In this document: one piece after another, positions 1,477 through 50,697 of the stretch
Layout of the letters: every line of letters starts with the position of its first letter
Numbering within the stretch: position 1 is the first letter of the stretch
From: Candidatus Niyogibacteria bacterium
GTDB lineage: Bacteria > Patescibacteriota > Minisyncoccia > JACROR01
Length of the DNA: 64,000 bases
Direction of reading: 5' to 3'
NCBI GenBank assembly: GCA_016186495.1
Contig: JACPLO010000002.1
Location: 6,857-70,856 of the forward strand
Translations under genes and position numbers: made by a program
The notes under the pieces: generated by a model
Databases searched by the model: none
The model's input: only the letters and a program-made list of their open reading frames with translations
Told to the model about the DNA's origin: nothing

Positions 1477-3186
1477 ATGGATATTCGATTTGCTGACCTT
1501 CTCGTGGAGAAAAATATAATCTCCGGAGAAGAATTAAATAAAATAAAACAAGAAGCGGCTTCCCGAAGCGTTCCTTTAGAGGATATTCTTTTGGAAAAAA
1601 AAATACCGGAGATTGAAATTTTAAAATCTAAAAGCGAAATTTTGGGAGCGCCGATCATATCTTTAAAAAAAGGTAAAATTCCTTTTGATGTTTTAAAATT
1701 AGTGCCGGAAGAATCCGCCAAACATTATCGGTTTATTCCTTTTGCCGTCAGCGAAGGCGTTTTAGAAGTGGGAATGGTGGATCCGAATGACATCATCGCC
1801 CGGGAAGCTTTGAATTTTATTTCCGCCAAGATTAATATGCCGTATAAGATTTTTTTAATCAGCAAATCTGATTTTACGGCGGTGTTTGAAGATTATAAAA
1901 GTTTGGGCGGCGAAGTAACCCAGGCGTTGGGAGAATTGGAAAGTATGCTGATAGAAGCGGAAAAATCAATGCCGAAAGAGGCGGAAAAGGTTTTGGAATT
2001 CGTTGAAGAAACGCCGGTTATTAAAGTGGTGGCGGTGATGCTCCGCCATGCCGCGGAAGGAAACGCTTCTGATATCCACATTGAACCCCAGCGCGATCAT
2101 TTAAGAATAAGATTCAGAGTGGACGGCATTCTTCATACAAGTTTAGTTTTACCTCTTAAGGTTCATGAGGCGATCGTTTCCCGCATTAAAATTTTAACCA
2201 ATATGCAGCTTGACGAGAAACGGAAGCCGCAAGACGGCCGGTTTTCCGCCAGTATTGAGAAAAGGCAAATTGATTTTAGAGTTTCCACTTTCCCCACTTT
2301 TTTCGGAGAAAAAGTCGTTATCAGGATTTTGGATGTTGAAAAAGGAATAAAAACGCTTGAGGAAGCCGGATTTTCAGGAAATAATCTGGCAGAAATTAAA
2401 AAGGCGCTTGATCGCCCTTACGGATTGATTTTAATTACCGGTCCGACCGGTTCGGGTAAAACCACCACGCTTTACGCGATGCTTCAGATTTTAAATGAAG
2501 AGGGAAGTAATGTGGTAAGTTTGGAAGATCCGGTGGAATATAACGTGGAAGGAGTCAATCAATCCCAAGTAAAGCCGGAGATCAGTTATAATTTTGCCAA
2601 TGGCTTGCGTTCAATTTTACGCCAAGATCCGGATGTGATTATGGTGGGCGAAATAAGAGATAAAGAGACAGCCCAGCTGGCTATTCATGCGGCTTTAACC
2701 GGCCATTTGGTTCTTTCCACTTTGCATACCAATTCGGCCACGGGCGTGATTCCTCGTTTGATTGATATGGGCGTTGATTCTTATTTAATCGCTCCTACTC
2801 TTGTTTTAGCGATGGCTCAAAGGTTATCCAGAACTCTCTGTCCGGAATCGCGGAAAGAAATTCCGGCTGCCGGAAAAATAAAAGAAATTCTGGAAAAAGA
2901 AATGGCGGAAATTCCTTTGGAAATTAAGAAGAGCATAAAAATACCTTCAAAAATTTATCAAGCAATGCCTTCTGCTTCTTGCCCTAAAGGCACGAAGGGA
3001 CGCATCGCGATCAGCGAAGTTATCGCGATGACGCCGGCGCTGGAAAAAGCCATTCTTTCTGACCCGACTGAACCTAATATTATGAAAGCGGCGCGCCAGC
3101 AGGGAATGATTAAAATGCGCGAAGACGGAATTTTAAAGGTTTTGGAAGGAAAAATCGGGCTTGAAGAATTAACGGAAATTATTTAA
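1477..3186 (+). CDS. pilB: Type IV pilus assembly ATPase PilB/GspE
   Basis: Walker A motif GPTGSGKTTT, GspE N-terminal domain, and a C-terminal Cys cluster. 569 aa. Confidence 0.9.
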   Translation: MDIRFADLLVEKNIISGEELNKIKQEAASRSVPLEDILLEKKIPEIEILKSKSEILGAPIISLKKGKIPFDVLKLVPEESAKHYRFIPFAVSEGVLEVGMVDPNDIIAREALNFISAKINMPYKIFLISKSDFTAVFEDYKSLGGEVTQALGELESMLIEAEKSMPKEAEKVLEFVEETPVIKVVAVMLRHAAEGNASDIHIEPQRDHLRIRFRVDGILHTSLVLPLKVHEAIVSRIKILTNMQLDEKRKPQDGRFSASIEKRQIDFRVSTFPTFFGEKVVIRILDVEKGIKTLEEAGFSGNNLAEIKKALDRPYGLILITGPTGSGKTTTLYAMLQILNEEGSNVVSLEDPVEYNVEGVNQSQVKPEISYNFANGLRSILRQDPDVIMVGEIRDKETAQLAIHAALTGHLVLSTLHTNSATGVIPRLIDMGVDSYLIAPTLVLAMAQRLSRTLCPESRKEIPAAGKIKEILEKEMAEIPLEIKKSIKIPSKIYQAMPSASCPKGTKGRIAISEVIAMTPALEKAILSDPTEPNIMKAARQQGMIKMREDGILKVLEGKIGLEELTEII

Positions 3187-3190
3187 AAAT

Positions 3191-3637
3191 ATGAAAATAA
3201 GAAAAAAATTAGGGTTTACGATTTTGGAAATTTTGGTTGTTTTGGCGATCGGCGCTTTAATTCTTTCTTTTGTTTTTTGGGGCTATCGCGATCTTAAAGC
3301 CAAAAGCCGCGATTCCAGAAGAGAACATGATATTAAAGAAATTCAAAATTCCCTTGTTCTTTACGTGAATGAGGCCGGTGTTTTTCCTTGTACTGGAGAA
3401 GGAGAAATAATTATCGGCGTTAATTCTTGTTTAAAAGACGCGCTTTTGGGAATCGGCGTTATTCCCGCTTTACCCATTGATCCTTTAGGAGGCGCCAGCG
3501 GCAGTTGCGGCAATCCTGCTTCTTACGTTTATTGTTATCAATCTTTGGAAAATGGCTTTAATTATCAAATAAGATATAATTTAGAGACCGACAGCATTTT
3601 AGGCAAAGCAAAAGGCCTTCAAAGCGTATCGCCTTAA
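3191..3637 (+). CDS. Prepilin-type N-terminal cleavage/methylation domain protein (pseudopilin)
   Basis: N-terminus KLGFTILEILVVLAIGALIL is a class III signal, followed by a Cys-rich C-terminus. Confidence 0.7.
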   Translation: MKIRKKLGFTILEILVVLAIGALILSFVFWGYRDLKAKSRDSRREHDIKEIQNSLVLYVNEAGVFPCTGEGEIIIGVNSCLKDALLGIGVIPALPIDPLGGASGSCGNPASYVYCYQSLENGFNYQIRYNLETDSILGKAKGLQSVSP

Positions 3638-4741: not shown

Positions 4742-4798
4742 TTTCAAAGCTTGGAGCGCTGCCATAAGAAAATGAATTTTACAACATTAGTATAAATT

Positions 4799-6642: not shown

Positions 6643-6682
6643 AACCTCTCCCTCTGGTTAGCCGGAAGGGGAGGTTTTATGT
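6643..6682 (+). terminator. Rho-independent terminator after pilin gene
   Basis: Stem aacctctccc / ggggaggtt followed by ttttatgtttt, 25 bp after the pilA stop. Confidence 0.6.
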
Positions 6683-7491
6683 TTTGTATTTGGCGGATAA
6701 CAAGTTATTATTTAATTATGGCGGGGATTTTAATTTTTATTTTAGGACTAATCATGGGCAGTTTTCTAAATGTGGTCATCTTTCGGCTGAATACCGGAGA
6801 ATCCGTTGCGAAGGGGCGTTCCCGATGTTTTGCCTGCGGCGCGGAGCTGAAGTGGTTTGAACTTATTCCGATTTTTAGTTTTTTGGTTCAAGCCGGCCGC
6901 TGTCGGGCCTGCCAAAGCAGAATATCTCGGCAATATCCGGCCGTGGAGCTGGCCGTGGCTTTGATTTTTTACGCTTTATATTTAAAATGGCTGGTAATTT
7001 GGCCGCCGAATATTCCGGTGTTTATCTGGTGGCTGGTTTTCTGGTCAATTTTTTTGACGCTGGCGGTTTATGATTTTCATCATAAAATTTTGCCTGATAT
7101 TTTAGTTTATCCTTTAGGAATTATCGCGGTTTTGGGCGGAGCGGTTTTTTTTAAAAAAGATTTTTGGCCGGCTTTGGCGATCGGCGTTTTATTTTTCTTG
7201 TTTTTTGCCGGCCTTTGGCTGGTTTCCAGAGGAAAATGGATGGGGCTGGGGGATGCTAAATTATTTTTCAGCGTCGGCGTTTTTTTAGGCTGGCCTTTGG
7301 CGCTGGTGGCGATGTTTTTTTCTTTTTGGCTTGGCGCTATAATAAGCGGTATCATAGTTATTTTAAAAAGGTCGTTAAATTTAAAAAGCGAGATCCCTTT
7401 CGGCCCTTTTATTTTTTTGGGAGCAATAATTGCTTTTTTCTGGGGGGATCTTGTATTTTCTTGGTATTTAAAAATAATTTTTAACGTATGA
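6679..7491 (+). CDS. pilD: Prepilin leader peptidase / N-methyltransferase PilD (peptidase A24)
   Basis: CxxC...CxxC zinc-finger region (CFACGAEL...CRACQSRI), multiple TM helices, 270 aa. Confidence 0.85.
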   Translation: MFCIWRITSYYLIMAGILIFILGLIMGSFLNVVIFRLNTGESVAKGRSRCFACGAELKWFELIPIFSFLVQAGRCRACQSRISRQYPAVELAVALIFYALYLKWLVIWPPNIPVFIWWLVFWSIFLTLAVYDFHHKILPDILVYPLGIIAVLGGAVFFKKDFWPALAIGVLFFLFFAGLWLVSRGKWMGLGDAKLFFSVGVFLGWPLALVAMFFSFWLGAIISGIIVILKRSLNLKSEIPFGPFIFLGAIIAFFWGDLVFSWYLKIIFNV

Positions 7492-7492
7492 A

Positions 7493-7570
7493 CCCCGTTA
7501 GAAATCTTCATAAATAAGGTTTCAAGCGGGGAAATGATTATGCAAAACAAAAAACAAATTTCTAACGGAG
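7493..7570. repeat. Palindromic repeat unit: ccccgttagaaat...atttctaacggag
   Basis: Inverted copies of the window-wide 9-mer. They flank the start of the 7534 CDS directly after the pilD stop. Confidence 0.7.
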
Positions 7571-7995
7571 TGAATATAAACATAAAAAAAGCTTTTCTCC
7601 AGATTTTTATCGGCGCGATAATTATCGGCGGATTGTTTTTTGTCGGCTTATCGCCGCGAGGCCAGAAATTTTCTTCAAATCCGGATAGCGTTAAGAACGG
7701 AGAAAAAAAATATTTTTTAACGCTTAATTACGGCAACGGAAAAATAAGAAAATTCAGCAGCGAAATGGCGGAGGAAAAGACCAGGGCGTGGAATCTGCTC
7801 CAGCTAGCCTCGGCCCAATCGGCGGTGTCAGTGGAAATTGAAGATGGATTTCTTCCCCGTTCCATTGATGGATTTAAAAACACCGATCAAAACAAATGGG
7901 TTTTATTCGTGAACGGAGCAAGGCAAACAAACGGCCCTTTTGAGGTGTTTGTCAAAAAGGGAGATTTGGTGGAGTTTAAGTATGAAAAACAATAA
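7534..7995 (+). CDS. Hypothetical membrane-anchored protein in pilus operon
   Basis: N-terminal TM then a beta-rich domain. No motif recognised. Codon 10-12 is the repeat-encoded SNG. Confidence 0.5.
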   Translation: MIMQNKKQISNGVNINIKKAFLQIFIGAIIIGGLFFVGLSPRGQKFSSNPDSVKNGEKKYFLTLNYGNGKIRKFSSEMAEEKTRAWNLLQLASAQSAVSVEIEDGFLPRSIDGFKNTDQNKWVLFVNGARQTNGPFEVFVKKGDLVEFKYEKQ

Positions 7996-8626
7996 AATAA
8001 ATTTTTTAAGGAGATTTACCCCATTAAATAGTTGCAAAGCAAATTTAACGGGGTTTACGGTTGTTGAAGTGTTGATTACCATGGGAGTTTTTGCGTTAGT
8101 TAGTTCAATGGTTTTGGCGAATTATCCCAAATTTTCCGAGCGGCTGACTCTGGAACAAACCGCTCAAAAAATCGCTTTATCTTTCCGGGAGGCAAAAATC
8201 CTCTCTTTAACGGTCGGAGAATCTGAAATTGGAACGCGAATTTTTCCCGGTTACGGCGTGCATTTTGACGCCGGTGAAAGCGGAAATAATAAAAGATATT
8301 TGATTTTTTCCGATCTTAACGCCGATAAAAAATATGCGGAGCCGGACGACGGAGAAAAAGATATTTTTGGAATCCAAAGCTCCGCTTTTATTTCAGGAGC
8401 TTGTTTCGGGGAAGAAGACGCCGGCAGTTTAAGCGAATGCCAAAGTTATAATCAAACGAAAATTTTAGATATAGTTTTTACTAGGCCAAAACCCAGCATT
8501 GATTTTTATGACGGCGAAAGAAGCCAGTGGCGAGGTGAGCAGAATGTCGGCATTTTTATCGTTAATCCCGAAGGCGATATTAAAAAAATAATTATCTGGA
8601 AAACCGGGCAGATAATGGTTGAATGA
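7940..8626 (+). CDS. Minor pseudopilin (prepilin-type cleavage/methylation domain)
   Basis: The track ORF starts at 7940; the start is uncertain. The mature end GFTVVEVLITMGVFALVSSM begins at ~8049. An unusually long leader, FTPLNSCKANLTG, is encoded by repeat DNA. Confidence 0.7.
   Translation: MRCLSKREIWWSLSMKNNKINFLRRFTPLNSCKANLTGFTVVEVLITMGVFALVSSMVLANYPKFSERLTLEQTAQKIALSFREAKILSLTVGESEIGTRIFPGYGVHFDAGESGNNKRYLIFSDLNADKKYAEPDDGEKDIFGIQSSAFISGACFGEEDAGSLSECQSYNQTKILDIVFTRPKPSIDFYDGERSQWRGEQNVGIFIVNPEGDIKKIIIWKTGQIMVE
8021..8058. repeat. Palindromic repeat (ccccattaaat...aatttaacgggg) overlapping pseudopilin leader
   Basis: Inverted-repeat pair of a family variant. The right arm encodes the L-T-G-F-T cleavage motif. 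Confidence 0.6.
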
Positions 8627-8640
8627 GATTTTATAATTAA

Positions 8641-8708
8641 TTCAAAAGTCAAAATGCAAAATTCAAAATTTCAATTCAAAATTCAAAAGTTTTATTTTTA
8701 ATTTTCAA
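8641..8708. repeat. AT-rich tandem TTCAAAA heptamer run
   Basis: About 6 direct copies of (a)ttcaaaa upstream of the PilV-like gene. Confidence 0.5.
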
Positions 8709-8710
8709 AT

Positions 8711-9229
8711 ATGGCTTATCCAAAATCCGGCAAAGGTTTCAGCTTATTAGAGACGCTTGTGGCTTTGGCGATTTTAAATGCCGCGATTTTAGGGCCAATC
8801 AGTCTGGCTTATGTCAGCATCCGTTCAGCCAGTTTGTCTCATAACATCACGATTGCCGCTTTTTTAGCCGAGGAAGGAGTGGAATTGGCGCGCAGTCAGC
8901 GCGAAAAAAATATTTACAGCGGCAATGATTGGCTTAATAGCCTTGCCGGTTGCGCGGTTGGCAGTCCTTGCCGAATCGCGACTGCCGCGGACGGCGAAAT
9001 CAGCGTTGTTTCTTGCGGCGGATCATGCGCGCCCCTTAATTATGATTCAGATATCGGTCTCTACTGGTATGAGAGCGGAAATGCTTCAATTTTTACCAGA
9101 AGTTTTACGGTTGAGGAAATAAAAGAAAACAAAGAAGCAAAAGTGACGATGACGGTCAGTTGGAAAGAACGTTTTTTAAGCGGCAATCAAAATATTCAGT
9201 TAGAAAGCCATCTTTCCAATTGGCATTAG
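8711..9229 (+). CDS. Minor pilin, PilV/GspI-like
   Basis: N-terminus GFSLLETLVALAILNAAILGPI. Confidence 0.7.
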   Translation: MAYPKSGKGFSLLETLVALAILNAAILGPISLAYVSIRSASLSHNITIAAFLAEEGVELARSQREKNIYSGNDWLNSLAGCAVGSPCRIATAADGEISVVSCGGSCAPLNYDSDIGLYWYESGNASIFTRSFTVEEIKENKEAKVTMTVSWKERFLSGNQNIQLESHLSNWH

Positions 9230-9235
9230 AAATTT

Positions 9236-9892
9236 ATGGCTGAAGATTTTAAATTTAAAAAATTAAGGCGCGGGTCGCGGTTTCTAACGGGGTTTACCCC
9301 AGTTAAATCTTTCGCTTCGCGAAATTTAACGGGGTTTACCCCGTTAAATAGTTGCGAAGCAAATTTAACGGGGTTTACTCTGCTGGAGATGATTGTGTCT
9401 TTGGGAGTTTTTTCCGCGGCGATTTTGATTATTTTAGGGGCTATTTTGTCCATTAATGACGCTCAAAAGAAAATGATTAATATTCAGGCCGTTGAAGATA
9501 ATTTGCGTTTCGCTTTGGACGCAATGTCCAGAGAGATTCGGACCGGATCTGTCTATAATTGCGAAGGAGGAGGTTCGGCGTCCGATTGTCCGGCCGGATC
9601 GCCAATTTTCGCTTTTGATTCCATCAGCGGGGGAAGGATTATTTATCGTTGGAACAGCGTTAATAAAAGCATTGAAGAATCGGAAGACAATGGCTCAACT
9701 TATTATCCGATAACCGGCAACGATCTGAAAATAGAAAAATTAACTTTTTATGTTTTTGGAACAAGAACGATTGATTTTAAACAGCCGCGAGTGACAATGA
9801 TTATAAAAGCATTTGCCGGAGAAGAAAGAGTTAAAACTCGCTCGGAATTCAATATTCAAACCACGGTTACGCAAAGAGAATTAGATTCATAA
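9236..9892 (+). CDS. Minor pilin, PilW/GspJ-like, with triplicated leader
   Basis: Mature end GFTLLEMIVSLGVFSAAILIIL. The N-terminal extension contains three LTGFT repeats encoded by tandem palindromic repeats. Confidence 0.65.
   Translation: MAEDFKFKKLRRGSRFLTGFTPVKSFASRNLTGFTPLNSCEANLTGFTLLEMIVSLGVFSAAILIILGAILSINDAQKKMINIQAVEDNLRFALDAMSREIRTGSVYNCEGGGSASDCPAGSPIFAFDSISGGRIIYRWNSVNKSIEESEDNGSTYYPITGNDLKIEKLTFYVFGTRTIDFKQPRVTMIIKAFAGEERVKTRSEFNIQTTVTQRELDS
9284..9378. repeat. Tandem palindromic repeat array (taacgggg-ttta-cccc(a)gttaaat x3)
   Basis: Three nested hairpin units of the TAACGGGG family inside the 5' end of the PilW-like ORF. Confidence 0.75.
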
Positions 9893-12444: not shown

Positions 12445-12656
12445 ACGCTTATTGTAAAATTTATTTTCTTATGACAGTGCTCCAAGCCTTGAAAATTATA
12501 GTCGTTTTGTTTCGGAAAAATTACGCGGTACCCCGTTCCTCCTTCGCTTCGCTCAGGATTTTCCGACCGCTATTTTTCCTCGTAAAACTTCTTAATTTTC
12601 AAAGTCTTTCCGCAAGTCAACAAAAACGAATTTTACAATAAGTGTTATATTGTAAT

Positions 12657-16469: not shown

Positions 16470-17435
16470 ATGAAGATATTTATTACGAGGAAAATTCCCG
16501 AAGCGGGAATTAAAAAGCTCGCGGAAAAACACGAGATTAAAATCAGTCCGCATGATCGCGTTTTATCAAAAGAAGAATTGATTGCCGCGCTGAAAAATCA
16601 GGGATACGGCGCGGTGCTTTGCCTTTTAACCGATAAAATTGATGACGATGTTTTAGAAGCGGCCGGCAAGCAATGCCGGATTTTCGCCAATTTTGCCGTG
16701 GGTTTTGATAATATTGATCTGGTTGCGGCCAAAAAACGGGGCATAATAATTACCAATACGCCGGGAGTTTTAACGGACACCGTGGCAGAGCATACTTTTA
16801 CTTTGATGCTGGCGATTTCCCATCGGATTGCCGAAGCGGATAAATTCACCAAAACCGGAAAATACGAGGGCTGGGCGCCGATGCTTTTATTGGGAAATGA
16901 TTTATCAAGAAAAACTGTCGGCATTGTGGGTTTGGGGCGGATTGGCTCGCGCGTGGCCCATCACGCGGCTAAAGGATTTGACGCGCGCGTGATTTATCAC
17001 GACCTTCAGCGCAATAAAGAATTTGAGAAAGAATTTAACGCGGAATACAGGGAAAAATTGGAAGATTTATTGAAAGAGGCGGATTATGTTTCTCTGCATG
17101 TGCCGCTTTTGCCGGCCACGCGGCATTTGCTGAACGCCGAGCGGCTGAAATTAATGAAGCCGACCGCATATCTTATAAATACTTCGCGCGGGCCGGTGAT
17201 AGACGAAAAAGCGTTAGTGGAAGCGCTGCACGCCAAAATTATCAAAGGCGCGGCTTTGGATGTTTTTGAAAACGAACCGGCGTTAGCCGAAGGATTGGCA
17301 AAACTTGATAACGCAATTTTGACGCCGCATATCGCTTCCGCCACCGAAGAAACGCGCGGCAAAATGGCGGAATTGGCGGTAGATAACATTATTGCTGCTT
17401 TAGAAGGGCGGACACCTCCTAATTTAGTGGGGTAA
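16470..17435 (+). CDS. D-isomer-specific 2-hydroxyacid dehydrogenase (glycerate DH / hydroxypyruvate reductase family)
   Basis: GLGRIGSRVA NAD-binding motif with catalytic R/E/H context. The track ORF starts at TTG 16437 inside the tRNA, so the real start is probably ATG 16470. Confidence 0.82.
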   Translation: MKIFITRKIPEAGIKKLAEKHEIKISPHDRVLSKEELIAALKNQGYGAVLCLLTDKIDDDVLEAAGKQCRIFANFAVGFDNIDLVAAKKRGIIITNTPGVLTDTVAEHTFTLMLAISHRIAEADKFTKTGKYEGWAPMLLLGNDLSRKTVGIVGLGRIGSRVAHHAAKGFDARVIYHDLQRNKEFEKEFNAEYREKLEDLLKEADYVSLHVPLLPATRHLLNAERLKLMKPTAYLINTSRGPVIDEKALVEALHAKIIKGAALDVFENEPALAEGLAKLDNAILTPHIASATEETRGKMAELAVDNIIAALEGRTPPNLVG

Positions 17436-17491
17436 ACCCCGTTAGAAATCGCGAACGCAATGTTCGCGTTCTATTTCTAACGGGGTAAAAC
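17429..17491. repeat. Long palindromic repeat: ggggtaaaccccgttagaaat-cgcgaacgcaatgttcgcg-atttctaacggggtaaaac
   Basis: Near-perfect 60-bp hairpin built from the family 9-mer. The stop codon of the upstream gene lies inside it. Confidence 0.8.
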
Positions 17492-18476: not shown

Positions 18477-18483
18477 TATACTA

Positions 18484-18540
18484 GACTTCCCCTTAATCGT
18501 TTCCAAAAACAATTTGTCCGTATTTCGTAATTTAAAGTAT
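18484..18540 (+). promoter_or_regulatory. Conserved upstream motif (gacttcccc-ttaatcgtttccaaaaacaattt...)
   Basis: About 60-bp block that is >80% identical to 54812-54874 upstream of mreB. It ends in tataat 9 bp before the gap ATG. Confidence 0.45.
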
Positions 18541-18549
18541 AATAAATAA

Positions 18550-25264: not shown

Positions 25265-26707
25265 ATGTTTTTTAGAAAATTTCAAACTTTTGTTTTAATT
25301 TTTATTTTTATAACGGGCGCTTTTTTAAGCGTCCGTTCCGCGTTTTCTCAAAGCCAAACCGTTGACCCCGTTAGAGGTAAGATTCCGGAGGAATCTGCCG
25401 GTTTGCCGTTAGCAAATCGGACCTCTAACGGGGTTGATCCGGCCGCGATTTTGGAACAACGGGCTAAACTGCTGGAAGAAGAAAAGGAAGTGGAAGAACA
25501 GATTGGCGGATTGATGGTTATTATTCAAAATAAACAAGGGGAAACCGCCAGTTTGGAGCGCGATATCGCCATTATTAACGCCGAGATTAAAAAAGCAAAA
25601 CTGGCCATTAAAGCCAGAACTCTGACGATTGATAATCTTAATTCATCAATCGGAGAAAAATCTAAATTTATTGTTAAACTTTTAGACAAACAAGAGCGCG
25701 AAAAAGAATCTTTAGCCGAGCTTTTGCGGCAATTGAATGAATTTGGAGACACCACTTTAGTGGAGATTATTTTGGGTTATGAAAATCTTTCCGATTTTTT
25801 CGTGAATATGGATTCTTTGGATTTTCTTCAAAAATTCATTCAGGATTCTTTTGACGAAATTAAAATAACAAAAGAGAATACTGAAGAAGAGAAGTCTATT
25901 CTGGAAGAAAAAAAGAAAGAAGAATCAGAACTCCGTTATTTGCAGGAGCTTGAGAAAAAAAGAACTGAAGAAAGAGAAAAAGAAAAGAAAAAGATTTTAG
26001 AAATTACGCGCGGCGAAGAAAATGAATACCAAAAGCTTTTGGCCAGTCGGAAGAAAGATATTGCTCAAATCAGAAATCAACTTTTTATTTTGCGTGGTTC
26101 GGACGCCATTCCTTTTGAAAAAGCCATTGAATACGCCAATATCTCATTTAAGGCAACAGGCGTGCGCCCAGCTTTTCTTTTGGGAATAATTGCCGAAGAA
26201 TCCGAATTGGGCGCTAATTTAGGGTCCGGAAATTGGAAAACTGACATGTACGATTGTTATCGCCGAATCGGCTACAATAAGTCGGCGGAAAAACAAAAAA
26301 CCGCTTTTTTAGCGATTATTTCAGAATTATTTATTGACAGTCCTGATTCAAGGCCGGTTTCCAAAGCGCCGTATTACGGCTGCGGCGGAGCCATGGGGCC
26401 GGCGCAGTTTATGCCCGCTACTTGGTGGGATCCGGTTGGCAATACGGGATATAAAAAATTGATCGCTCAATATACCGGCCATAATCCTCCGGACCCGTGG
26501 AGTCCGGAAGACGCTTTTATGGCCGCGGCGCTTTTGCTTAAAGACAACGGCGCGGCGGCCGGAGGATTTACCGCGGAACGCCGGGCAGCTTTAAGATATT
26601 TAGCCGGCGGCAATTGGAATAAGCCGGCTTACGCTTTTTACGGCGACGACGTGATGGCTTTGGCTAAAAAATATCAAGATCAGATTGATATTTTAACGGA
26701 ATCTTAA
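25265..26707 (+). CDS. Secreted coiled-coil protein with C-terminal lytic-transglycosylase (SLT/lysozyme-like) domain
   Basis: Signal/TM, long coiled coil, then EESELG (catalytic E-S) and [13 protein letters not shown] motifs. The track ORF 25022 is a 5' over-extension. Confidence 0.55.
25365..25434. repeat. Palindromic repeat inserted in-frame in CDS (accccgttagaggt...acctctaacggggt)
   Basis: 14-bp perfect inverted repeats 42 bp apart. It encodes DPVRG...TSNGVDP in the linker of the transglycosylase protein. Confidence 0.8.
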
Positions 26708-27827: not shown

Positions 27828-28691
27828 TTGCAAAAACACAAGACTTCGTTTATGATATTATTTATGGTTGTAACTGACCAAGAAAATCAAAATAAAAATG
27901 AAAATAATAATTTGGCTGTCATTCAAAGCGAAGAAAAATCAGATTTAACCGCCAAAGGGCAGGAAACCGCGGTTTTAGCCGAATCCGCCATTCCCGAACG
28001 CTTTGATCAAGAGCTGGAAAAAATGTTTAAAGCCGGCGTGCATTTCGGCTATTCGCGAAGCCGGCGGCATCCTAAAATGACGCCTTATATTTTCGGTTTG
28101 CGGAACAACGCGGAAGTTTTTGATTTGGAAAAAATAAAAGTGAAACTGAAAGAAGCTTCGGCTTTTATCCGAGAGTTGGGAAAAGAGAAGAAAACCGTTG
28201 TCTTAGTGGGAACTAAACCGGCTATTCGCGATATCGTGGAAAAGGCGGCGCGAGAAGCCGGCCTGCCTTATGTGAATGAACGCTGGTTGGGCGGTTTTAT
28301 CACTAATTTTCCCGTCATCAGGAAAAGAATGGATTATTATGAGAATTTAAAAAATGAAAAAGAAAGCGGCGGCCTGGAAAAATACACCAAAAAGGAACGT
28401 TTGGAAATCGCGAAAGAATTAGCGGTACTGGGAAGAAATTTTGACAGTTTGCTGGCGTTAAAAAAACTTCCCGACGCTCTTTTAATTGTTGATCCTGAAA
28501 ATGAAAAAACAGCCGCCAAAGAAGCGGCGGATAAAAAAATTCCCGTGGTCGCTATTTTGAATAGCGACAGCAATCCGGAAAATATTTCTTATCCTATTCC
28601 GGCCAATGACGCTTCCCGGGCGAGCGTGGATTATTTATTGTCAAAAATTACCGAGGCTTATCAAGAAATTACCGATGCGCCGAAGACATGA
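27828..28691 (+). CDS. rpsB: 30S ribosomal protein S2 (with N-terminal extension or later start)
   Basis: MFKAGVHFGYSRSRRHPKM is the S2 signature. The conserved core starts ~55 codons into the ORF. Confidence 0.85.
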   Translation: MQKHKTSFMILFMVVTDQENQNKNENNNLAVIQSEEKSDLTAKGQETAVLAESAIPERFDQELEKMFKAGVHFGYSRSRRHPKMTPYIFGLRNNAEVFDLEKIKVKLKEASAFIRELGKEKKTVVLVGTKPAIRDIVEKAAREAGLPYVNERWLGGFITNFPVIRKRMDYYENLKNEKESGGLEKYTKKERLEIAKELAVLGRNFDSLLALKKLPDALLIVDPENEKTAAKEAADKKIPVVAILNSDSNPENISYPIPANDASRASVDYLLSKITEAYQEITDAPKT

Positions 28692-28732
28692 AGGCAATAA
28701 GGAAAAAAAGCAAAAAATTCTGATAAAAAAAT

Positions 28733-29876: not shown

Positions 29877-29899
29877 CTCAAAAGCAGAGCAATGGTTTT
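29867..29899 (+). pseudogene. tRNA-like 5' half (acceptor + D-arm), partner of 3' half at 30016-30048
   Basis: GCCGAGG-TA-GCTC-AAAAGCA-GAGC-A-ATGGT... aligns to positions 1-33 of the adjacent tRNA-Thr. Its acceptor strand pairs 6 of 7 with the downstream CCTCGAC. Confidence 0.45.
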
Positions 29900-29900
29900 G

Positions 29901-29918
29901 CCCGCCCCGTTAGAAATG
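29901..29918. repeat. Left 18-bp inverted repeat ccccgttagaaatgccga flanking tRNA-Thr
   Basis: Exact reverse complement of 29993-30010. Confidence 0.85.
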
Positions 29919-29989
29919 CCGACGTAGCTCAGTGGTAGAGCAACGGTTTTGTAAACCGTAGGTCGTGGGTTCAAATCCCTCCGTCGGCT
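29918..29989 (+). tRNA. tRNA-Thr (TGT)
   Basis: Hand fold: acceptor GCCGACG/CGTCGGC, D-stem GCTC/GAGC, anticodon stem ACGGT/ACCGT with loop TTTGTAA, T-loop TTCAAAT. 72 nt. Confidence 0.8.
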
Positions 29990-29992
29990 CAT

Positions 29993-30010
29993 CGGCATTT
30001 CTAACGGGGT
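29993..30010. repeat. Right 18-bp inverted repeat tcggcatttctaacgggg flanking tRNA-Thr
   Basis: Exact reverse complement of 29901-29918. Confidence 0.85.
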
Positions 30011-30015
30011 AAACA

Positions 30016-32250: not shown

Positions 32251-32934
32251 ATGAAAAAATACATAATTTCAGCCATAATTTTAATTTTGGGCTTAAGCGC
32301 GTATTATTTTATTTATCAGCTAAAAATCGGAGATAATAATATGAAGGAAGCAAACGAAAATTCTAAGGAGGATTTGAATCCCGTTAAAAATAACGAGTTG
32401 AGCGATGTTGAGAATAGCGCCGCGAAACAGCGTAAAATTTCTAACGGGATGAATCCGCGCGCGACGCTGGAAACGAGCATGGGTAATATTACGATAGAAC
32501 TTTATCCTAAAGATGCGCCGAAAACCGTGGCTAATTTTATCGGTTTAGCTAAAAAAGGATATTATAACGGCGTTATTTTTCATCGGGTGGTAAGCGGTTT
32601 TGTCATTCAGGGAGGCGATCCGACCGGCACGGGCGCCGGCGGCAATTCCATTTACGGCGGCGATTTTGAAGACGAACTTGATTTAAATACGGAAAGTTAT
32701 CAGCGCGGATATTTAAAAGGCGCGGTCGCGATGGCTAATCGCGGGCCTGACACTAATTCCAGCCAATTTTTTATTATGCTTGAAGATAAATCTTTGCCTA
32801 AGCTTTACACTATTTTCGGCAAAGTGGCGGAAGGAGATGATGTCGTCCAAAATATCGGCCGGGTGAAAGTAGGCGCTAATGACAAGCCATTGGCGCCGGT
32901 TATCATAAATAAAATTATTGTTGAAGGAAATTAG
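32251..32934 (+). CDS. Peptidyl-prolyl cis-trans isomerase (cyclophilin type), membrane-anchored
   Basis: GYYNGVIFHRVV...GGDPTGTGAGG cyclophilin core, with an N-terminal TM. Confidence 0.88.
   Translation: MKKYIISAIILILGLSAYYFIYQLKIGDNNMKEANENSKEDLNPVKNNELSDVENSAAKQRKISNGMNPRATLETSMGNITIELYPKDAPKTVANFIGLAKKGYYNGVIFHRVVSGFVIQGGDPTGTGAGGNSIYGGDFEDELDLNTESYQRGYLKGAVAMANRGPDTNSSQFFIMLEDKSLPKLYTIFGKVAEGDDVVQNIGRVKVGANDKPLAPVIINKIIVEGN
32375..32456. repeat. Palindromic repeat inserted in-frame in cyclophilin linker (ttgaatcccgttaaaaat...aatttctaacgggatgaat)
   Basis: The ends match the 130-bp element termini. It encodes NPVKNN...ISNGMNP between the TM anchor and the PPIase domain. Confidence 0.8.
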
Positions 32935-33717: not shown

Positions 33718-34992
33718 ATGACAACTTCTAACGGGGTAAAACAAAATATCGTTATTTTGGGAGCGGGGTTTGCCGGCGTGAGAGCGGCTTTGGATTTAGC
33801 CAGATACCTGCCTTCGGAAGCGAAAATTACCCTGATTGACCGGAATTCTTTCCATTCATACACGCCGGCTTATTACGAAGTGGCGGCCGCTTTTTTGCCG
33901 GAAAAAGAAGAGCTTTCCCGGGAACAATTTGAATTATTGGCTTCAACCGCCGCCATTCCTCTTAAAACTATTTTTGAAAAATATAAAAATGTGGAATTGG
34001 CAATCGGCGAAGTGGCGGATATTTTGCCTGAAAAAAATCAGATTGAGATAAAATCGGGCGGAAAATACCGCTATGATTGGCTGATCATCGCTTTGGGAAG
34101 CGAACAAGATTATTTCGGGTTATCGGAGATCAAAAAATATGTTTATACTTTAAAAAGCCTGGAAGGCGCGCTTAATTTGCGGAACGGCATTGATGAATTA
34201 TTTTGGCGCCGGGCTAAGCATGAAAAAATAAAAATAATAGTGGCGGGCGGCGGATTTTTGGGAAGCGAGATAGCGGCCGAACTTGCCGGTTATGTCAAAA
34301 AACTTAATCGCCAACATTCTCGGCCAAAAGAAAATTGCGAAATAAGCATTATTGAAGGAGGACAGAATGTTTTAGGAAACGCCAGCGAATGGGCGCGGAA
34401 AAAAGCGGCCGGCCGGTTGGAAAAATTGGGCGTAAAAATTTCAACAAACAGTTTAATCAGCAAAGTAACCGAAGAAAAATTGATTTTGAAAGACGGCCAA
34501 ACTGTTTCTTATGATATTTTAATTTGGACAGTCGGCGTTCGGGCTTGCGCGATTACCGGCCAACTGGTCGGCCAAGGGCAAGAATTAAAGGGCAAAGGAT
34601 GCCTGGCCGTTGACCGATATTTGCGCGTCATTCCCTATGAAAATATTTTTGCCGCCGGAGATATTGCTTACGCGTCCGATTACGAAATAAATACTTTTAT
34701 GCCGATGACCGCTCAAGTCGCTATTCTTCACGGCCAATATATCGCTTACACGATAAAAAGAATGATTCGCAAACGCCGCCCGTTCCCTTATTGGCCGCAC
34801 CAAAATAGATTTAGCATCGCGCTTGGCGGAAAATACGCGCTTTTTGACGGAAAGCGGTTTAAATTCTCCGGTTTTTTCGCCTGGCTTTTGAAACATTTGA
34901 CGACTTTAAAATATTTCGCGGGCATTCTTCCTTTTTATCGCGCTTTTTTTATCTGGCAACGGGGTTTTAAGATATATAAAGATAACGATTAA
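33718..34992 (+). CDS. FAD-dependent pyridine nucleotide-disulfide oxidoreductase (NDH-2-like)
   Basis: N-terminal IVILGAGFAGV and a second IIVAGGGFLGSE dinucleotide fold. The start codon region ATGACAACTTCTAACGGGGT is a repeat half-site encoding MTTSNGV. Confidence 0.7.
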   Translation: MTTSNGVKQNIVILGAGFAGVRAALDLARYLPSEAKITLIDRNSFHSYTPAYYEVAAAFLPEKEELSREQFELLASTAAIPLKTIFEKYKNVELAIGEVADILPEKNQIEIKSGGKYRYDWLIIALGSEQDYFGLSEIKKYVYTLKSLEGALNLRNGIDELFWRRAKHEKIKIIVAGGGFLGSEIAAELAGYVKKLNRQHSRPKENCEISIIEGGQNVLGNASEWARKKAAGRLEKLGVKISTNSLISKVTEEKLILKDGQTVSYDILIWTVGVRACAITGQLVGQGQELKGKGCLAVDRYLRVIPYENIFAAGDIAYASDYEINTFMPMTAQVAILHGQYIAYTIKRMIRKRRPFPYWPHQNRFSIALGGKYALFDGKRFKFSGFFAWLLKHLTTLKYFAGILPFYRAFFIWQRGFKIYKDND

Positions 34993-37088: not shown

Positions 37089-37433
37089 ATGGAACAAAAA
37101 ATAAATCCCGTTAAAAGTTTTATAGCAAAAAAAGTATTAACTAAAAAGAAAGCCGAAGGCGAATTTGTCGACAAAAGTATGGATAACGACAAGCTCGGCA
37201 GAACTTCTAACGGGATAAAAAAAATTTTAGAAACTGAAATCGCGCCGATGCTCGCGATGCATGGCGGAAGAGTGGAATTTGTCAGTTTTGAAGAGGGGAC
37301 GGTAAAAATTCGGCTTAAAGGCGCTTGCCATGGCTGCGCGCTTTCCGAATTAACCTTGAAAGAAGGCGTGGAAAGAATTCTTAAAGAAAAAATCCGCAAA
37401 ATAAAAAGCGTGGAAAATGTTGAACCCCGTTAG
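37089..37433 (+). CDS. NifU C-terminal-domain (Nfu-type) Fe-S carrier with repeat-encoded N-terminal extension
   Basis: MHGGRVEFVSFEEGTVKIRLKGACHGC CxxC motif. The first ~42 codons are encoded by a palindromic repeat. Confidence 0.78.
   Translation: MEQKINPVKSFIAKKVLTKKKAEGEFVDKSMDNDKLGRTSNGIKKILETEIAPMLAMHGGRVEFVSFEEGTVKIRLKGACHGCALSELTLKEGVERILKEKIRKIKSVENVEPR
37103..37216. repeat. Palindromic repeat in-frame at 5' end of nfu (aaatcccgttaaaagtt...aacttctaacgggat)
   Basis: 15-bp inverted repeats ~100 bp apart. It encodes NPVKSF...RTSNGIKK. Confidence 0.8.
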
Positions 37434-37537
37434 AAGTTCAACCATGCTTTATTATATTAAAATCAAAAGTAAGCAAAGTCGCCTAACGGCTCACTTTAAT
37501 GTAAATTTTTATTATTATGACAACTTCTAATGGGGTG
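37422..37537. repeat. Palindromic repeat spanning nfu stop to nifS2 start (gaaccccgttagaagtt...aacttctaatggggtg)
   Basis: The left arm contains the nfu TAG stop. The right arm overlaps the nifS2 ATGACAACTTCTAATGGGGTG start. Confidence 0.8.
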
Positions 37538-38716
37538 AATAAATCGCGATCTAAATATATTTATTTTGATTATGCCGCCACTACGCCGGTTGACGCGGAA
37601 GTTTTGTCCGCGATGGAGCCCTATTTCAAGAAAAAATCCGGCAATCCCAGTTCTTTGCATTTAATGGGCCAAGAAGCGAGGCGGGCCGCGGATGATGCGC
37701 GCGAACAAATGAAAAATTTTTTAAATGCTTCGTCTCTTCGGGAAATTATTTTTACCGGCTCCGCGACCGAAGCCAATAATTTGGCGATTTTTGGCGTGAT
37801 TAAAGCGATGAGATATTGGCCGGCTAAATTGCCGCATATTATCACCACGGCGATTGAACATAAATCAGCGTTGGCGCCATGCCAAGAATTGGAAAAAAAG
37901 GGGGAAGCAGAAGTCACTTATTTAAAACCAAACAAAGAAGGGTTTATTAATGCTGAAGAATTAAGGCAAGCCCTGCGTCCGGATACCGCACTGGTTTCCG
38001 TAATGTACGTCAACAATGAAATCGGGACTATTCAGCCCATCGCGGAAATTTCCGAAATAATCAAAGAATACCGGAAAAATAATTTAAAAATAACTCCGTT
38101 TTTTCATTGCGACGCCGTTCAAGCGGCCGGATTTTTGGACATGGACGCGCAAAAATTAGGCGTGGATTTGATGGTTGTTTCCGGTCATAAGATTTATGGG
38201 CCAAAAGGCATTGGCGCGTTGTATGTCCGGGAAGGCGTGAAAATTCAACCCTTGGCTTACGGCGGAGAACAGGAATACGGAATAAGGCCCGGCACGGAAG
38301 CCGTGTCTTTAATCGTCGGTTTAGGCAAAGCAGCGGAAATAACCGCCAGATGGAAATTTGATAAAAATAATCTGGAAAAAATTTTAAAGTTGAGAAATTA
38401 TTTGATTGACGAATTGTTAAAAATCCCGGGAATCCAGTTAAACGGCTCGCGTGAAAATCGTTTGCCTAATAACGCAAATATCGCTTTAACCGGCTATAAT
38501 ATGGATTCTTTGCTGATTAATCTTTTTGAAAAAGGAATCTGCGTTTCTTCCGGCGCGGCTTGCGGCGCCAGAGGGCGTAACCCTTCGTATGTTATTTTTG
38601 CGATCAGCGGCGACCGGAAACGGGCGATTTCCAGTTTGCGCATTACTTTAGGGCGGGAAACAAACAAAAAAGAAATAGATTTATTTTTAGAAAAATTGAT
38701 TGGCACTCTTGCATAA
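37517..38716 (+). CDS. Cysteine desulfurase paralogue (class V aminotransferase)
   Basis: PLP-Lys SGHKIYGPKGIG and a SSGAACG active-site loop. It shares a ~100-bp near-identical DNA tract with the 35056 gene. Confidence 0.9.
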   Translation: MTTSNGVNKSRSKYIYFDYAATTPVDAEVLSAMEPYFKKKSGNPSSLHLMGQEARRAADDAREQMKNFLNASSLREIIFTGSATEANNLAIFGVIKAMRYWPAKLPHIITTAIEHKSALAPCQELEKKGEAEVTYLKPNKEGFINAEELRQALRPDTALVSVMYVNNEIGTIQPIAEISEIIKEYRKNNLKITPFFHCDAVQAAGFLDMDAQKLGVDLMVVSGHKIYGPKGIGALYVREGVKIQPLAYGGEQEYGIRPGTEAVSLIVGLGKAAEITARWKFDKNNLEKILKLRNYLIDELLKIPGIQLNGSRENRLPNNANIALTGYNMDSLLINLFEKGICVSSGAACGARGRNPSYVIFAISGDRKRAISSLRITLGRETNKKEIDLFLEKLIGTLA

Positions 38717-43460: not shown

Positions 43461-43595
43461 AATGAATCCCGTTAGAGATTAAAACCTTTATTTTTTAACG
43501 GAATTTAAAAATAACATCAATGAAAATAATTAGAATTACAAGAATAATTCACGGAAATGATTTTAATCATTTCCTATCTCTAACGGGATGAATTT
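43461..43595. repeat. 130-bp palindromic element, copy B
   Basis: About 90% identical to copies A and C. It sits between the scpA stop and scpB. The scpB ATG at 43588 is inside the right TIR. Confidence 0.9.
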
Positions 43596-44217
43596 ATCCA
43601 ACATTATAGAATCAATTTTGTTTATTTACGGCGAGCCGATGAAAATATCGCGGCTGGCTGAAATTTTAAACAAAAAAGAAAACGAAGTGGAAGAGGCTTT
43701 GGCGGTTTTGGAAAATAATTTAGCGGAACGGGGATTAAAATTAATTAAAAACAACGGCGAAGCAACGCTGGCCACTGTTTCCGAAGCTTCCGAATTTATC
43801 CAAGGGCTTTTAAAAGAAGAATTCAGCGGTAAATTAACCAAAGCGGCTTTAGAAACTTTGGCGATTGTCGCATATTCAGGCCCTTTGCCGCGCGCGGAAA
43901 TTGATTTTATCAGGGGAGTAAATTCTTCTTTCATTTTGCGGAATTTGCTGATCAGCGGGCTGGTGGAAAGGGAAATTAATCCTAAAGACCGGAGAACTTT
44001 TATTTATAAGCCGTCAATGGATTTTTTGCGGTTTTTAGGCCTTAGTAAATTAGAAGATTTGCCGGAATACGGCGAATTTCGGAAAAGTTTGGAAGATTTT
44101 TCGTCCCTCACGCTTAATTTAAACGTGAGGGGCGAAGAAGAAATAAATCCCGTTAGAAGCCGTGATCGCTTTATGAAACAGCCGCAATCTAATGAAAATC
44201 AAAATTCATCAGAATAA
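43588..44217 (+). CDS. scpB: Segregation and condensation protein B
   Basis: Winged-helix ScpB motifs (IESILFIYGEP...), adjacent to scpA. Confidence 0.85.
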   Translation: MNLSNIIESILFIYGEPMKISRLAEILNKKENEVEEALAVLENNLAERGLKLIKNNGEATLATVSEASEFIQGLLKEEFSGKLTKAALETLAIVAYSGPLPRAEIDFIRGVNSSFILRNLLISGLVEREINPKDRRTFIYKPSMDFLRFLGLSKLEDLPEYGEFRKSLEDFSSLTLNLNVRGEEEINPVRSRDRFMKQPQSNENQNSSE

Positions 44218-44268
44218 AATTAAATTTCTATCAGATCGCCGATCACAATCTGCTTCTAACGGGATAAA
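44147..44268. repeat. Palindromic repeat spanning scpB 3' end (aaatcccgttagaagc...gcttctaacgggat)
   Basis: 14-bp inverted repeats ~105 bp apart with an internal gtgatcg/cgatcac inverted repeat. The last ~23 scpB codons (INPVRSRD...) are repeat-encoded. Confidence 0.75.
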
Positions 44269-44279
44269 TAATAAAGAAA

Positions 44280-49779: not shown

Positions 49780-50478
49780 GTGCCTTACCCATTTTTATTG
49801 CAATCCCATATTAAATCCGGCCGATTGGCTCACGGATATTTGTTGATCGGTTCAATTGAACAGGCAAGAAAAATCGCGGCGGAAGCGGCCGGCCGGCTGC
49901 TTGAAAATTTCAATCAAAACCATCCTGATTTTTTTGAATTTTGCGGCGAATCTTTCGGCATCAGCGAGGCGAGAGAGTTAATCAGAAAAACTTATCTGAA
50001 AGCATTCGGCGCCGGCAACAAAAAAATATTTTTTATCGGCGCGGAAACTATAACTTTGGAAGCTGCCAGCGCGCTTTTAAAAACAATGGAAGATTTTTCA
50101 GACGCGGCGCATTTTTTTCTTTCCGTTCTTTCGGAGGAAAATTTGCCGGTTACTCTTTGTTCGCGATTGGTTAAAATCCGGATGGCTTTTGAGCCGGAAG
50201 CGGGCTTCACGGACTATTGGCGGAATTTTGAAAAGAAACCTCATATTGATAAAATGGAATATCTTAAAAAAATAGCGGATAAAAAAGATGAAAAAGAACA
50301 AAAAAAAATTTTGGACGCCCGCGAAATTTATTTTGAAGATATTTTAAAAAATAGCGGCAATGACGAACAGCGAAAAAAATCTTTGGAAAATTTGGAAAAT
50401 CTGGTTTTCGCGAGAGAATTAATGGACGGTCCGGCCGCTTATCCTAAATCTATTTTAGAATATCTGATATTAACATGA
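49780..50478 (+). CDS. DNA polymerase III delta'-like clamp-loader subunit (short)
   Basis: N-terminus HGYLLIGS... resembles HolB, but at 232 aa it is truncated relative to canonical delta'. Confidence 0.5.
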   Translation: MPYPFLLQSHIKSGRLAHGYLLIGSIEQARKIAAEAAGRLLENFNQNHPDFFEFCGESFGISEARELIRKTYLKAFGAGNKKIFFIGAETITLEAASALLKTMEDFSDAAHFFLSVLSEENLPVTLCSRLVKIRMAFEPEAGFTDYWRNFEKKPHIDKMEYLKKIADKKDEKEQKKILDAREIYFEDILKNSGNDEQRKKSLENLENLVFARELMDGPAAYPKSILEYLILT

Positions 50479-50604
50479 ATCCCGTTAGAGATTAAAACCT
50501 TTATTTTTTAACGGAATTTAAAAATATCATCAATGAAGATAATTGGAAATTACAAGAATAATTTACGGAAATGATTTTAATCATTTCCTATCTCTAACAG
50601 GATG
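50474..50604. repeat. 130-bp palindromic element, copy C
   Basis: About 90% identical to copies A and B. The holB-like TGA stop lies in the left TIR (aacATGAatcccg). The right TIR is slightly degenerate (taacagg). Confidence 0.9.
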
Positions 50605-50697
50605 AAATACGCTTTAATTATTATTTTAACATTTTTAATAATTATTTTTGTTGTTTCGGCGATAAGATTGATGATAGGAAATTAGTTTTTATTCAAA

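Follow-up and report, generated by a model that had tools for sequence, protein, structure and literature searches.

A small hairpin-forming palindromic element as the probable source of the repeated LTGFT motif in a pilin leader of a Candidatus Niyogibacteria bacterium

The window analyzed here, i.e., a stretch of 64,000 nucleotides from a Candidatus Niyogibacteria bacterium (assembly GCA_016186495.1, contig JACPLO010000002.1, positions 6,857 to 70,856 of the forward strand), contains an open reading frame (ORF) at 9236-9892 for a minor pilin in which the pentapeptide LTGFT occurs three times, and the question raised by this locus is how the copies came to be there. An earlier note on this DNA, made from the sequence alone, had drawn attention to the three motifs and to the hydrophobic pilin helix that follows only the last of them, and both statements were confirmed. 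The Pfam N_methyl domain was found at residues 46-67 of the protein, i.e., at the third GFT only, which is also the sole GFT that combines Gly(-1)/Phe or Met(+1) (the slash marking the point of cleavage), Glu(+5) and about 20 hydrophobic residues, as is characteristic of prepilins. The N-terminus of the protein reads MAEDFKFKKLRRGSRFLTGFTPVKSFASRNLTGFTPLNSCEANLTG/FTLLEMIVSLGVF, and an exact look-up of the window pilin gave no matching record. At the DNA level, the region 9283-9378 consists of TCTAACGGG-GTTTAC, followed by CCCAGTTAAAT..TTTAACGGG-GTTTAC and then by CCCGTTAAAT..TTTAACGGG-GTTTAC, which together are translated as RFLTGFTPVKSFASRNLTGFTPLNSCEANLTG/FTLLEMIVSLGVF; the RNA of 9262-9392 was predicted to fold with -62.4 kcal/mol (z = -7.5). 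The earlier note had also described a second pilin with a related leader, which was indeed found to contain one such unit (8014-8058), although its true start is the ATG at 7982 rather than the TTG at 7940; this pseudopilin reads FTPLNSCKANLTG/FTVVEV, with N_methyl at residues 24-45. The evidence presented below makes it likely that the triplication stems from a tiny mobile, hairpin-forming palindromic element that was inserted in frame into the leader peptide.

The units in the pilin genes were found to belong to a family with a common plan, which can be written as T-N-N-A / Y-CCCGTTARA-nnn ... nnn-TYTAACGGG-R / T-N-N-A, the element proper extending from Y to R. Its arms, AYCCCGTTARA on the left and TYTAACGGGRT on the right, are perfect inverted repeats in the window, and the bases that extend them (typically at least three) vary among copies while remaining complementary within each copy. 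The middle is occupied by a loop or by cargo, so that elements range from about 30 to 135 nt, and the entire unit can be folded as one hairpin. The 9-nt arm core TYTAACGGG was matched 26 times in the window against 1.8 expected, a number that none of 100 shuffles reached, and TTAACGGGGTTTAC, with up to two mismatches allowed, was matched nine times against 0.49 expected. Two paired-arm patterns recovered two and five elements, respectively, and none in the shuffles. In all, 13 paired elements were counted, with the right arm located 15-105 nt 3' of the left arm in nearly all copies, and the density amounted to about one copy per 5 kb. The flanking direct repeats seen in the window were TGAA, TAAA, TTTA and TTGA, and the TNNA was identical on both sides in 12 of the 13 elements. 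Three copies (28731-28863, 43462-43593 and 50475-50607) share 85-96% identity across their full 125-127 nt at loci that are otherwise unrelated. A hairpin near 17429, mentioned in the earlier note as lying outside any pilin context, is present at 17424-17450 and is intergenic.

Relatives of the window allowed these sites to be compared in their filled and empty states. EF-Ts placed the source of the window in a Candidatus Niyogibacteria MAG. Contigs that are 99.95% identical to the window retain the elements, and a sister lineage from Hainich groundwater with about 86% nucleotide identity (L127-L130, L255-L259) had no arms in approximately 36 kb. Four filled sites of the window were found empty in this sister lineage. 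In the pilin that starts at 7982, it reads ATGAAAAATAAAGGGTTTACG, encoding MKNKG/FTIIEM, where the window has one 39-nt unit; at the start of the DUF4430-like gene, ..TATATGAATATAAAC.. corresponds to ..GTATGAA/C-CCCG...CGGA-G/TGAATATAAAC.. in the window, the slashes here and in the next two sites marking the edges of the element and of its target. At the start of tsf, L255 reads GAATA/ATGAA/AACGG, and the window has its 127-nt element between two copies of ATGAA; in the cyclophilin linker, L255 reads GCG/GTGAA/TCCGCGC at the position of the 75-nt in-frame element. The fifth polymorphic site is the 9236 pilin itself, in homologues of which, with nearly identical flanks, no unit (P0001/L001, MTEDLKFKKLRRGSRLPAG/FTLLEM) or one unit (P0003/L002, RRGFTPVKCFAKRNLTG/FTLLEM) was found, compared with two in the window; the comparison of copy number across relatives, proposed in the earlier note, thus revealed zero, one or two units. 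At all five sites the TNNA is present once when the site is empty and twice when it is filled. An apparent insertion of 119 nt in L128 was discarded as a run of N. It was also observed that ribosomal protein S2 (window 27828-28691, L255 1458-2501) has 279-287 residues in the window lineage and 347 in the sister lineage, its Lys/Glu-rich C-terminal tail being shortened in the window lineage immediately upstream of the element at the tsf start.

The family was then followed beyond the window in two surveys. Scanning of one genome per species yielded, among the matches listed, at least 120 DNA stretches with about 137-138 long copies, and a DNA scan of metagenome contigs, independent of gene calling, listed at least 132 short units. 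Hosts among the long-copy matches include all classes of Patescibacteria, Omnitrophota, Planctomycetota (Pirellulales and Scalinduaceae among them), Desulfobacterota, Nitrospirae, Spirochaetia, Edwardsbacteria and Stahlbacteria. Identical TNNA on both sides was seen in 90 of the 137 long copies listed, and the closing Y-R pair was complementary in 130 of them. Only about 4% of the listed copies (4 of about 137 long and 6 of about 132 short ones) are located in pilins.

These counts bear on a purely local model, in which the LTGFT units arose by slipped-strand mispairing or duplication at the 5' end of the pilin gene and the dispersed hairpins were derived from the pilin. The tandem units are bounded by direct repeats of 17-20 nt, their number varies from none to two among relatives, and the joined arms encode LTGFTPL, which is near the pilin consensus GFTLLE, all as this model would have it. 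Nonetheless, pilins account for a small share of the copies, and the family is found in genomes and at sites that lack a pilin context, mostly start codons; units 1 and 2 of the 9236 pilin are unlike in their interior, and unit 2 is nearer to the unit of the 7982 pilin. Moreover, slippage could gain or lose units but would leave their origin unexplained, and the local model is therefore regarded as extremely improbable. Of the two suggestions in the earlier note, that the repeat had seeded or expanded the leader or else was derived from a pilin 5' end, the former agrees with our findings insofar as the repeat family overlaps the cleavage motif and has expanded the leader, and the latter does not, the commonest site being the start codon of unrelated housekeeping genes. 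In the same vein, the suggested slipped-strand variation may account for secondary gain or loss between the direct repeats, but not for the origin of the units, because the window contains the same type of element at roughly twelve loci unrelated to one another.

Inside coding sequence, the inserted copies were found to preserve the reading frame. Of those in the window, the pilin copies measure 42, 39 and 39 nt, the copy in the cyclophilin linker 75 nt and that in an Nfu-like gene 114 nt, all of them multiples of three and free of stop codons. Among the short copies listed, 72 of 132 were multiples of three (p = 4e-7), and the six located at G/FT of pilins were all in frame behind a canonical leader (p = 0.0014), e.g., MNYKINSTKYTKRG FTPLEVRTKGGQPDKSRLFLTG/FTLIELLVVIAII. 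Copies at start codons had no such bias (25, 18 and 14 over the three frames). The frame is therefore kept only where ribosomes have to pass through the element, which speaks for translation of the units and against their removal by splicing. The opposite possibility, raised in the earlier note, that translation starts downstream and the repeats are pure 5'-untranslated hairpins, was not borne out: relatives share the upstream ATG and the basic leader MAEDFKFKKLRRG whether or not they have units, and the reading frame is preserved by the units.

In the pilins, the target is TTTA (or TTCA) within GGN-TTY-ACN, the codons for Gly(-1)/Phe(+1)-Thr(+2), and since it lies inside the G/FT codons, each insertion rebuilds ...ACG GGG TTT AC (LTGFT) at the right end and leaves GFT-P at the left. 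A correct cleavage site is in this way always restored beside the hydrophobic helix, and the GFT-P at the left is without a helix. As the units are multiples of three and stop-free, a ribosome that initiates at the conserved ATG upstream can continue across them. Most likely, the units are translated and subsequently cut off along with the rest of the leader by a prepilin peptidase, the A24 enzyme of the upstream gene at 6679-7491, which should cleave only at the last G/F, the sole one followed by a hydrophobic helix and Glu(+5). Because the insert would be discarded with the leader, the latter would constitute a permissive landing site, in which extra residues should cost little.

The unusual length of the leader, also pointed out in the earlier note, finds its explanation here. 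As in other class III (type IV prepilin) signal peptides, the last G/FTLLEM is canonical, with its hydrophobic helix and Glu(+5), and a gene for an A24 peptidase is part of the operon; unlike them, the leader has a length of 47 residues (24 for the second pilin), where about 5-15 are usual, and contains two decoy GFT motifs that lack a helix. Since element-free orthologues have ordinary leaders, such as MKNKG/FTIIEM or MNHESKITNQKKG/FTLIEM, the long leader is seen as a by-product of insertion. A class of oddly long prepilin leaders in uncultured bacteria would thus be explained as transposon scars, and a cleaved signal peptide as a safe harbor for selfish DNA. Comparable inserts were found at G/FT of distant pilins (P0023, P0029, P0030, P0038 and P0045, and also L032, L094, L118 and L166), and compensatory changes in the arms were noted among distant pilin inserts (L003, L004 and L006), e.g., in L003, where ACCCTGTTAGAG pairs with CTCTAACAGGGT. 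The pilin elements of L118 and L166 have an in-frame stop past the left arm, but supply an ATG and a basic leader of their own. As a separate observation, identical elements that provide an ATG and a basic leader were seen in front of two different pilin genes in other genomes (L118 544-1380; L166 2307-2492; L169 2913-2981 and 4163-4231), and these loci also display two tandem elements ahead of a pilin as well as minimal copies of 27-31 nt, barely more than both arms.

Outside the pilins, the favorite site of the family was found to be the start codon. In about half of the long copies listed, the duplicated sequence is RTGRA and represents the start codon of a housekeeping gene (TopA, MurG, L1, L36, AtpD, TypA and EF-Ts are examples). 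The RTG was a real gene start in 46 of 51 cases for ATGAA, 12 of 12 for ATGGA and 10 of 19 for GTGAA; when the two ATG classes were pooled, this amounted to 58 of 63, against a background of 31% for ATGRA opening a frame of at least 60 codons (p = 7e-24). The right arm adjoins the ATG, and a Shine-Dalgarno sequence precedes this right ATG in only 3 of 57 cases. The left copy frequently shares bases with the termination codon of the preceding gene (ATGA in seven cases, TAG inside the left arm in five), and 8 of 57 left copies follow a -10-like hexamer at leaderless spacing, compared with a background of 2%. A second hairpin (GG...CC) stands beside one arm in 30 of the 138 long copies listed, with 18 different, covarying stem sequences. 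Targeting of stop codons by the TAAA class was also considered and rejected, since only 11 of 123 copies would qualify.

A practical consequence is that gene callers misplace the starts of such genes, so that genome annotations carry spurious N-terminal extensions. In some subfamilies, an in-frame ATG lies just within the right arm, and gene callers consequently report N-termini such as MTTSNG- (33718, 37517) or MIMQNKKQISNG- (7534). The mechanically called ORF starts at 7534, 33718 and 37517 all lie inside elements, the ancestral starts being the GTG/GTA at 7570, 33736 and 37535.

The habit of sitting on start codons also raises the question of how downstream translation is maintained, and it suggests a rival explanation in which the hairpin is a cis-acting RNA device of the host, placed 5' of the start codon to govern translation or processing (e.g., by a regenerated leaderless 5'-AUG or by coupling through unmasking), with the pilin copies as side products. 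The adjacency of the right arm to real gene starts, the scarcity of Shine-Dalgarno sequences, the -10-like hexamers, the covarying second hairpins and the very stable folds would all agree with such a device. However, the sister lineage has the same genes without any element, copies also occur in plain spacers, in tRNA genes and within coding sequence, subfamilies are unrelated in their interiors, and there was no Rfam match: with Rfam 15, a scan of the window at the gathering threshold returned three tRNAs only, and a permissive scan of one long copy returned nothing better than E = 1. We therefore consider the RNA device very unlikely; behavior at the RNA level, if any, looks like an adaptation that renders the insertion harmless and not like the raison d'etre of the element.

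Some elements were found to carry a whole tRNA gene and to be placed within or next to a tRNA gene specific for the same amino acid. In the window, an element with tRNA-Thr(UGU) in its interior separates the halves of a second Thr-like tRNA, the anticodon stem of which is short by 3 nt; at the corresponding position, L255 of the sister lineage has a plain tRNA-Thr. In L021 (about 3180-3330), a tRNA-Ala(CGC) interrupts an otherwise intact tRNA-Ala(UGC) in which G3:U70 is kept, and in L089 (430-600) a 3' tRNA remnant comes after a tRNA-Val. The idea that such copies are spliced out was rejected, as ARAGORN analysis of deletion variants restored the tRNA-Ala(UGC) of L021 only with C33 and did not restore the outer tRNA of the window.

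This arrangement is relevant to another rival explanation, namely that each arm is one half of a site for site-specific recombination, in which the right arm, a center of 4-6 nt and the left arm make up an inverted pair of 11 nt about a short crossover region (as in dif, lox or att cores), that tiny circles have been integrated there by a recombinase of the host or of a mobile element, and that the direct repeat is the crossover region and not a fill-in duplication. Three copies in or beside tRNA anticodon loops carry an isoacceptor tRNA, which is the classical arrangement of integrases. In addition, tandem copies have one common center (window 9283-9378, L037 and L166), the central TNNA is constant inside each subfamily, many copies have unlike flanks, as would be expected when one center travels along, and, in a count made by eye, the empty pilin site and the joined arms agree in 19 of 30 positions. 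On the other hand, no recombinase was identified, only one half-site is conserved at each junction, and a solitary joined site was not found in 2.9 million viral contigs; the perfect duplications in 12 of 13 copies of the recently expanded window are equally explained by a staggered cut. Overall, we judge the recombination site to be unlikely. The same viral collection contained one long copy, on an uninformative contig, and with zero joined sites this led us to reject a phage origin of the family.

Several findings weigh against the mobile element that we prefer. Neither an autonomous copy nor a transposase with these ends was found in the 1.7 Mb of fetched loci, which had been chosen for short copies, and within these selected loci no arm pairs 300-6000 nt apart were found to enclose an ORF. 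The 11-nt termini are conserved over several phyla, which is unusual for a miniature inverted-repeat transposable element (MITE), and the TNNA is specific to subfamilies instead of varying freely. Flanks are non-identical in 35-45% of the copies outside the window. At the 9236 pilin, the upstream right arm (9283-9291) differs from the empty-site sequence of L001 at 6 of 12 positions, a mismatch that simple insertion leaves unexplained. Lastly, about half of the long copies are located exactly on start codons, for which target preference alone is not obviously the explanation.

The mobile element nonetheless remains the likely source of the pilin units, and it accords with what is directly observed, i.e., a family with a defined anatomy, insertion polymorphism with empty sites, duplication of the target, and conservation of the frame inside coding sequence only. 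As to chemistry, the preferred reading is that the element moves as a single-strand hairpin, or else that an enzyme acting in trans makes a staggered cut of 4 nt. The smallest copies consist of about two arms and a 3-nt loop; that the shortest copies are too small for duplex synapsis, together with the complementarity of the arms and the second hairpins, would favor a folded single-strand intermediate. Mutual information between the TNNA and the variable arm positions was within the shuffle range except for the closing pair and L+4, one position of the variable stretch (0.24 against a shuffle maximum of 0.173); as the TNNA shows no covariation with internal bases, nothing points to a guide of the IS200/IS605 type. 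A wider and decidedly tentative proposal, which we hold to be unlikely, is that of a cross-phylum and hitherto unrecognized class of hairpin mobile elements that move as a folded single strand or are neutralized at the RNA level, and that land on start codons and leaderless 5' ends and on the G/FT codons of pilins, and may carry tRNA genes into isoacceptor anticodon loops. If the hairpin is indeed cut or bypassed in the transcript, this would be a new kind of bacterial intervening sequence. The sharp contrast between a genome rich in copies and a sister lineage free of them offers a natural setting in which to seek the mobilizing enzyme.

Comparison with known repeats led us to class the family as one of the MITE or Rickettsia palindromic element (RPE) kind, apparently distinct in sequence and differing in size range, termini, duplication, host range and start-codon habit. 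In common with MITEs, the window family is short, non-coding, multicopy and dispersed, and has the terminal inverted repeats YCCCGTTARA / TYTAACGGGR; target duplication was evident in the five comparisons of empty and filled sites, yet flanks are identical in only 60-65% of the copies elsewhere. RPEs are short dispersed palindromes that are found in frame in unrelated protein genes, where they are translated as extra segments, and also in RNA genes and spacers (PMC10969869). The present elements likewise enter unrelated genes in frame and without stop codons (the pilins, the Nfu-like gene, the cyclophilin and the six pilin inserts derived from the scan), besides RNA genes and spacers; they are set apart by sizes down to about 30 nt, inverted termini of 11-14 nt, the TNNA duplication, their presence in several phyla and the preference for start codons and signal peptides. 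Given that the hosts are Patescibacteria and other phyla, similarity of behavior is claimed and not membership.

The Correia elements (CREE/NEMIS) and bacterial MITEs in general are similar in being non-coding, with terminal inverted repeats, target duplication, many copies and presence or absence from strain to strain, and Correia elements, like the present family, are for the most part located immediately 5' of genes, with which they are transcribed as hairpins. Correia elements are, however, 100-155 bp long, have 26-bp inverted repeats and a TA duplication and are confined to Neisseria, whereas the present family has termini of 11-14 nt and a TNNA duplication, and its subfamilies are unrelated in their interiors, with no parent insertion sequence known. 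The piggyBac/IS1380 group offers only a lead: its 4-bp duplication also has T first and A last (TTAA in piggyBac) and its ends are CCC...GGG (PMC10813416). The resemblance is architectural only, as the central two bases are variable here and double-stranded synapsis would require more than 30-40 nt; the fetched loci yielded neither an IS1380-like transposase nor a full-length element with such ends. The repetitive extragenic palindromes (REP/REPIN) with their RAYT enzymes and the IS200/IS605-derived PATE are similar as hairpin-forming repeats with hundreds of copies, probably handled as single strands. REP sequences are, nevertheless, extragenic, possess a GTAG head and make no duplication, whereas the present copies occur in ORFs and tRNA genes, have no GTAG head and duplicate the TNNA; IS200/IS605 elements have two different subterminal hairpins and no inverted termini, and covariation with a guide was not seen here. 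The flanking TTTAC and TTGAT resemble the target motifs of IS608 and ISDra2.

Three further candidates were considered and rejected. A DNA uptake sequence would fit the density and the inverted pairs, but not the target duplications, the empty sites, the copy-specific extensions of the arms or the cross-phylum spread. An invertible promoter would leave the presence/absence polymorphism with duplication unexplained. In integron attC sites, which lie at the 3' end of a cassette ORF, the order is RYYYAAC...GTTRRRY, which is reversed here (GTTAGA...TCTAAC); the attC order is found only in the 26-nt junction of tandem copies, which is too short compared with 57-141 bp, and cassette arrays are lacking. 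No publication was found with the arm sequence in a relevant context, nor on palindromic repeats of this kind in Patescibacteria. The family would thus be an abundant and previously undescribed one, common to Patescibacteria, Omnitrophota, Planctomycetota, Desulfobacterota and others, and located on the start codons of essential genes.

Table 1. Elements of the family in the window and the pilin and peptidase genes associated with them
Feature	Position	Strand	Remarks
Prepilin peptidase (A24)	6679..7491	+	Pfam A24_N_bact and Peptidase_A24; same operon, upstream of pilins
82-nt element at start codon of DUF4430-like gene	7488..7575	+	TGAA duplicated; right copy GTGAAT = old start codon; empty sites in L127, L130
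Pseudopilin gene, one unit in leader	7982..8626	+	Element-free orthologue L127 begins MKNKG/FTIIEM
39-nt unit in pseudopilin leader	8014..8058	+	Degenerate left arm (ATTTAC-CCCATTAAAT..TTTAACGGG-GTTTAC)
Minor (PilW/GspH-like) pilin gene, 47-residue leader holding inserts	9236..9892	+	Homologues are prepilin-type or type II secretion proteins
Upstream right arm TCTAACGGG + GTTTAC (first LTGFT)	9283..9297	+	Missing from L001 (empty site), where CTTCCGGCTGGATTTAC stands
Unit 1 (second LTGFT), 42 nt: CCCAGTTAAAT as left arm, loop, TTTAACGGG as right arm, duplicated GTTTAC	9298..9339	+	Orthologous single unit in L002/P0003
Unit 2, 39 nt: CCCGTTAAAT..TTTAACGGG + GTTTAC (third LTGFT, predicted cleavage site)	9340..9378	+	
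Degenerate right arm, GTAAAC, then 53-nt element	17424..17490	+	Intergenic
72-nt element	25361..25438	+	Duplication TTGA
127-nt element at tsf start codon	28731..28863	+	ATGAA duplicated; one of three near-identical copies; L255 empty site
Element with tRNA-Thr(UGU) interior, 18-bp perfect arms	29900..30014	+	tRNA at 29918-29990; between halves of second Thr-like tRNA (region 29867-30055)
75-nt in-frame element, linker of membrane-anchored cyclophilin	32374..32454	+	TGAAT duplicated; L255 empty site
Solitary right arm directly past cyclophilin stop codon	32942..32956	+	
Solitary right arm, ATGACAAC before it	33727..33741	+	Gene reads MTTSNG/VKQN...
114-nt in-frame element after codon 5 of Nfu-like gene	37101..37220	+	TAAA duplicated; excision gives MEQKIKKILETEIAPML
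Element between Nfu-like and cysteine desulfurase genes	37420..37540	+	Mutated right arm TAATGGGG; TGAA duplicated; in-frame ATGACAAC
126-nt element at start codon of scpB-like gene	43462..43593	+	ATGAAT duplicated
121-nt element across end of gene 43588-44217	44143..44269	+	TAAA duplicated
125-nt element, third copy of 28731 subfamily	50475..50607	+	Mutated right arm TCTAACAGG

Other repeats were also noted in the window. A 43-nt inverted repeat (4742-4784 and 12452-12494, 91% complementary) brackets a 7.7-kb block that contains pilC, pilins, the peptidase, minor pilins and ligA; a related direct copy is located at about 12596-12640, before gatC, and the corresponding junctions in L127 and L129 are too short to contain the repeat. 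A 69-nt repeat (18477-18545 and 54803-54871, 83% identity) lies upstream of gap-like and mreB-like genes, with a partial inverted copy at 54706-54749, and may be a shared promoter or leader. The long direct repeats at 35422-35588 and 37916-38082 represent two cysteine desulfurase-like paralogues, and those at 49094-49263 and 55241-55410 two mreB-like paralogues; neither pair is mobile.

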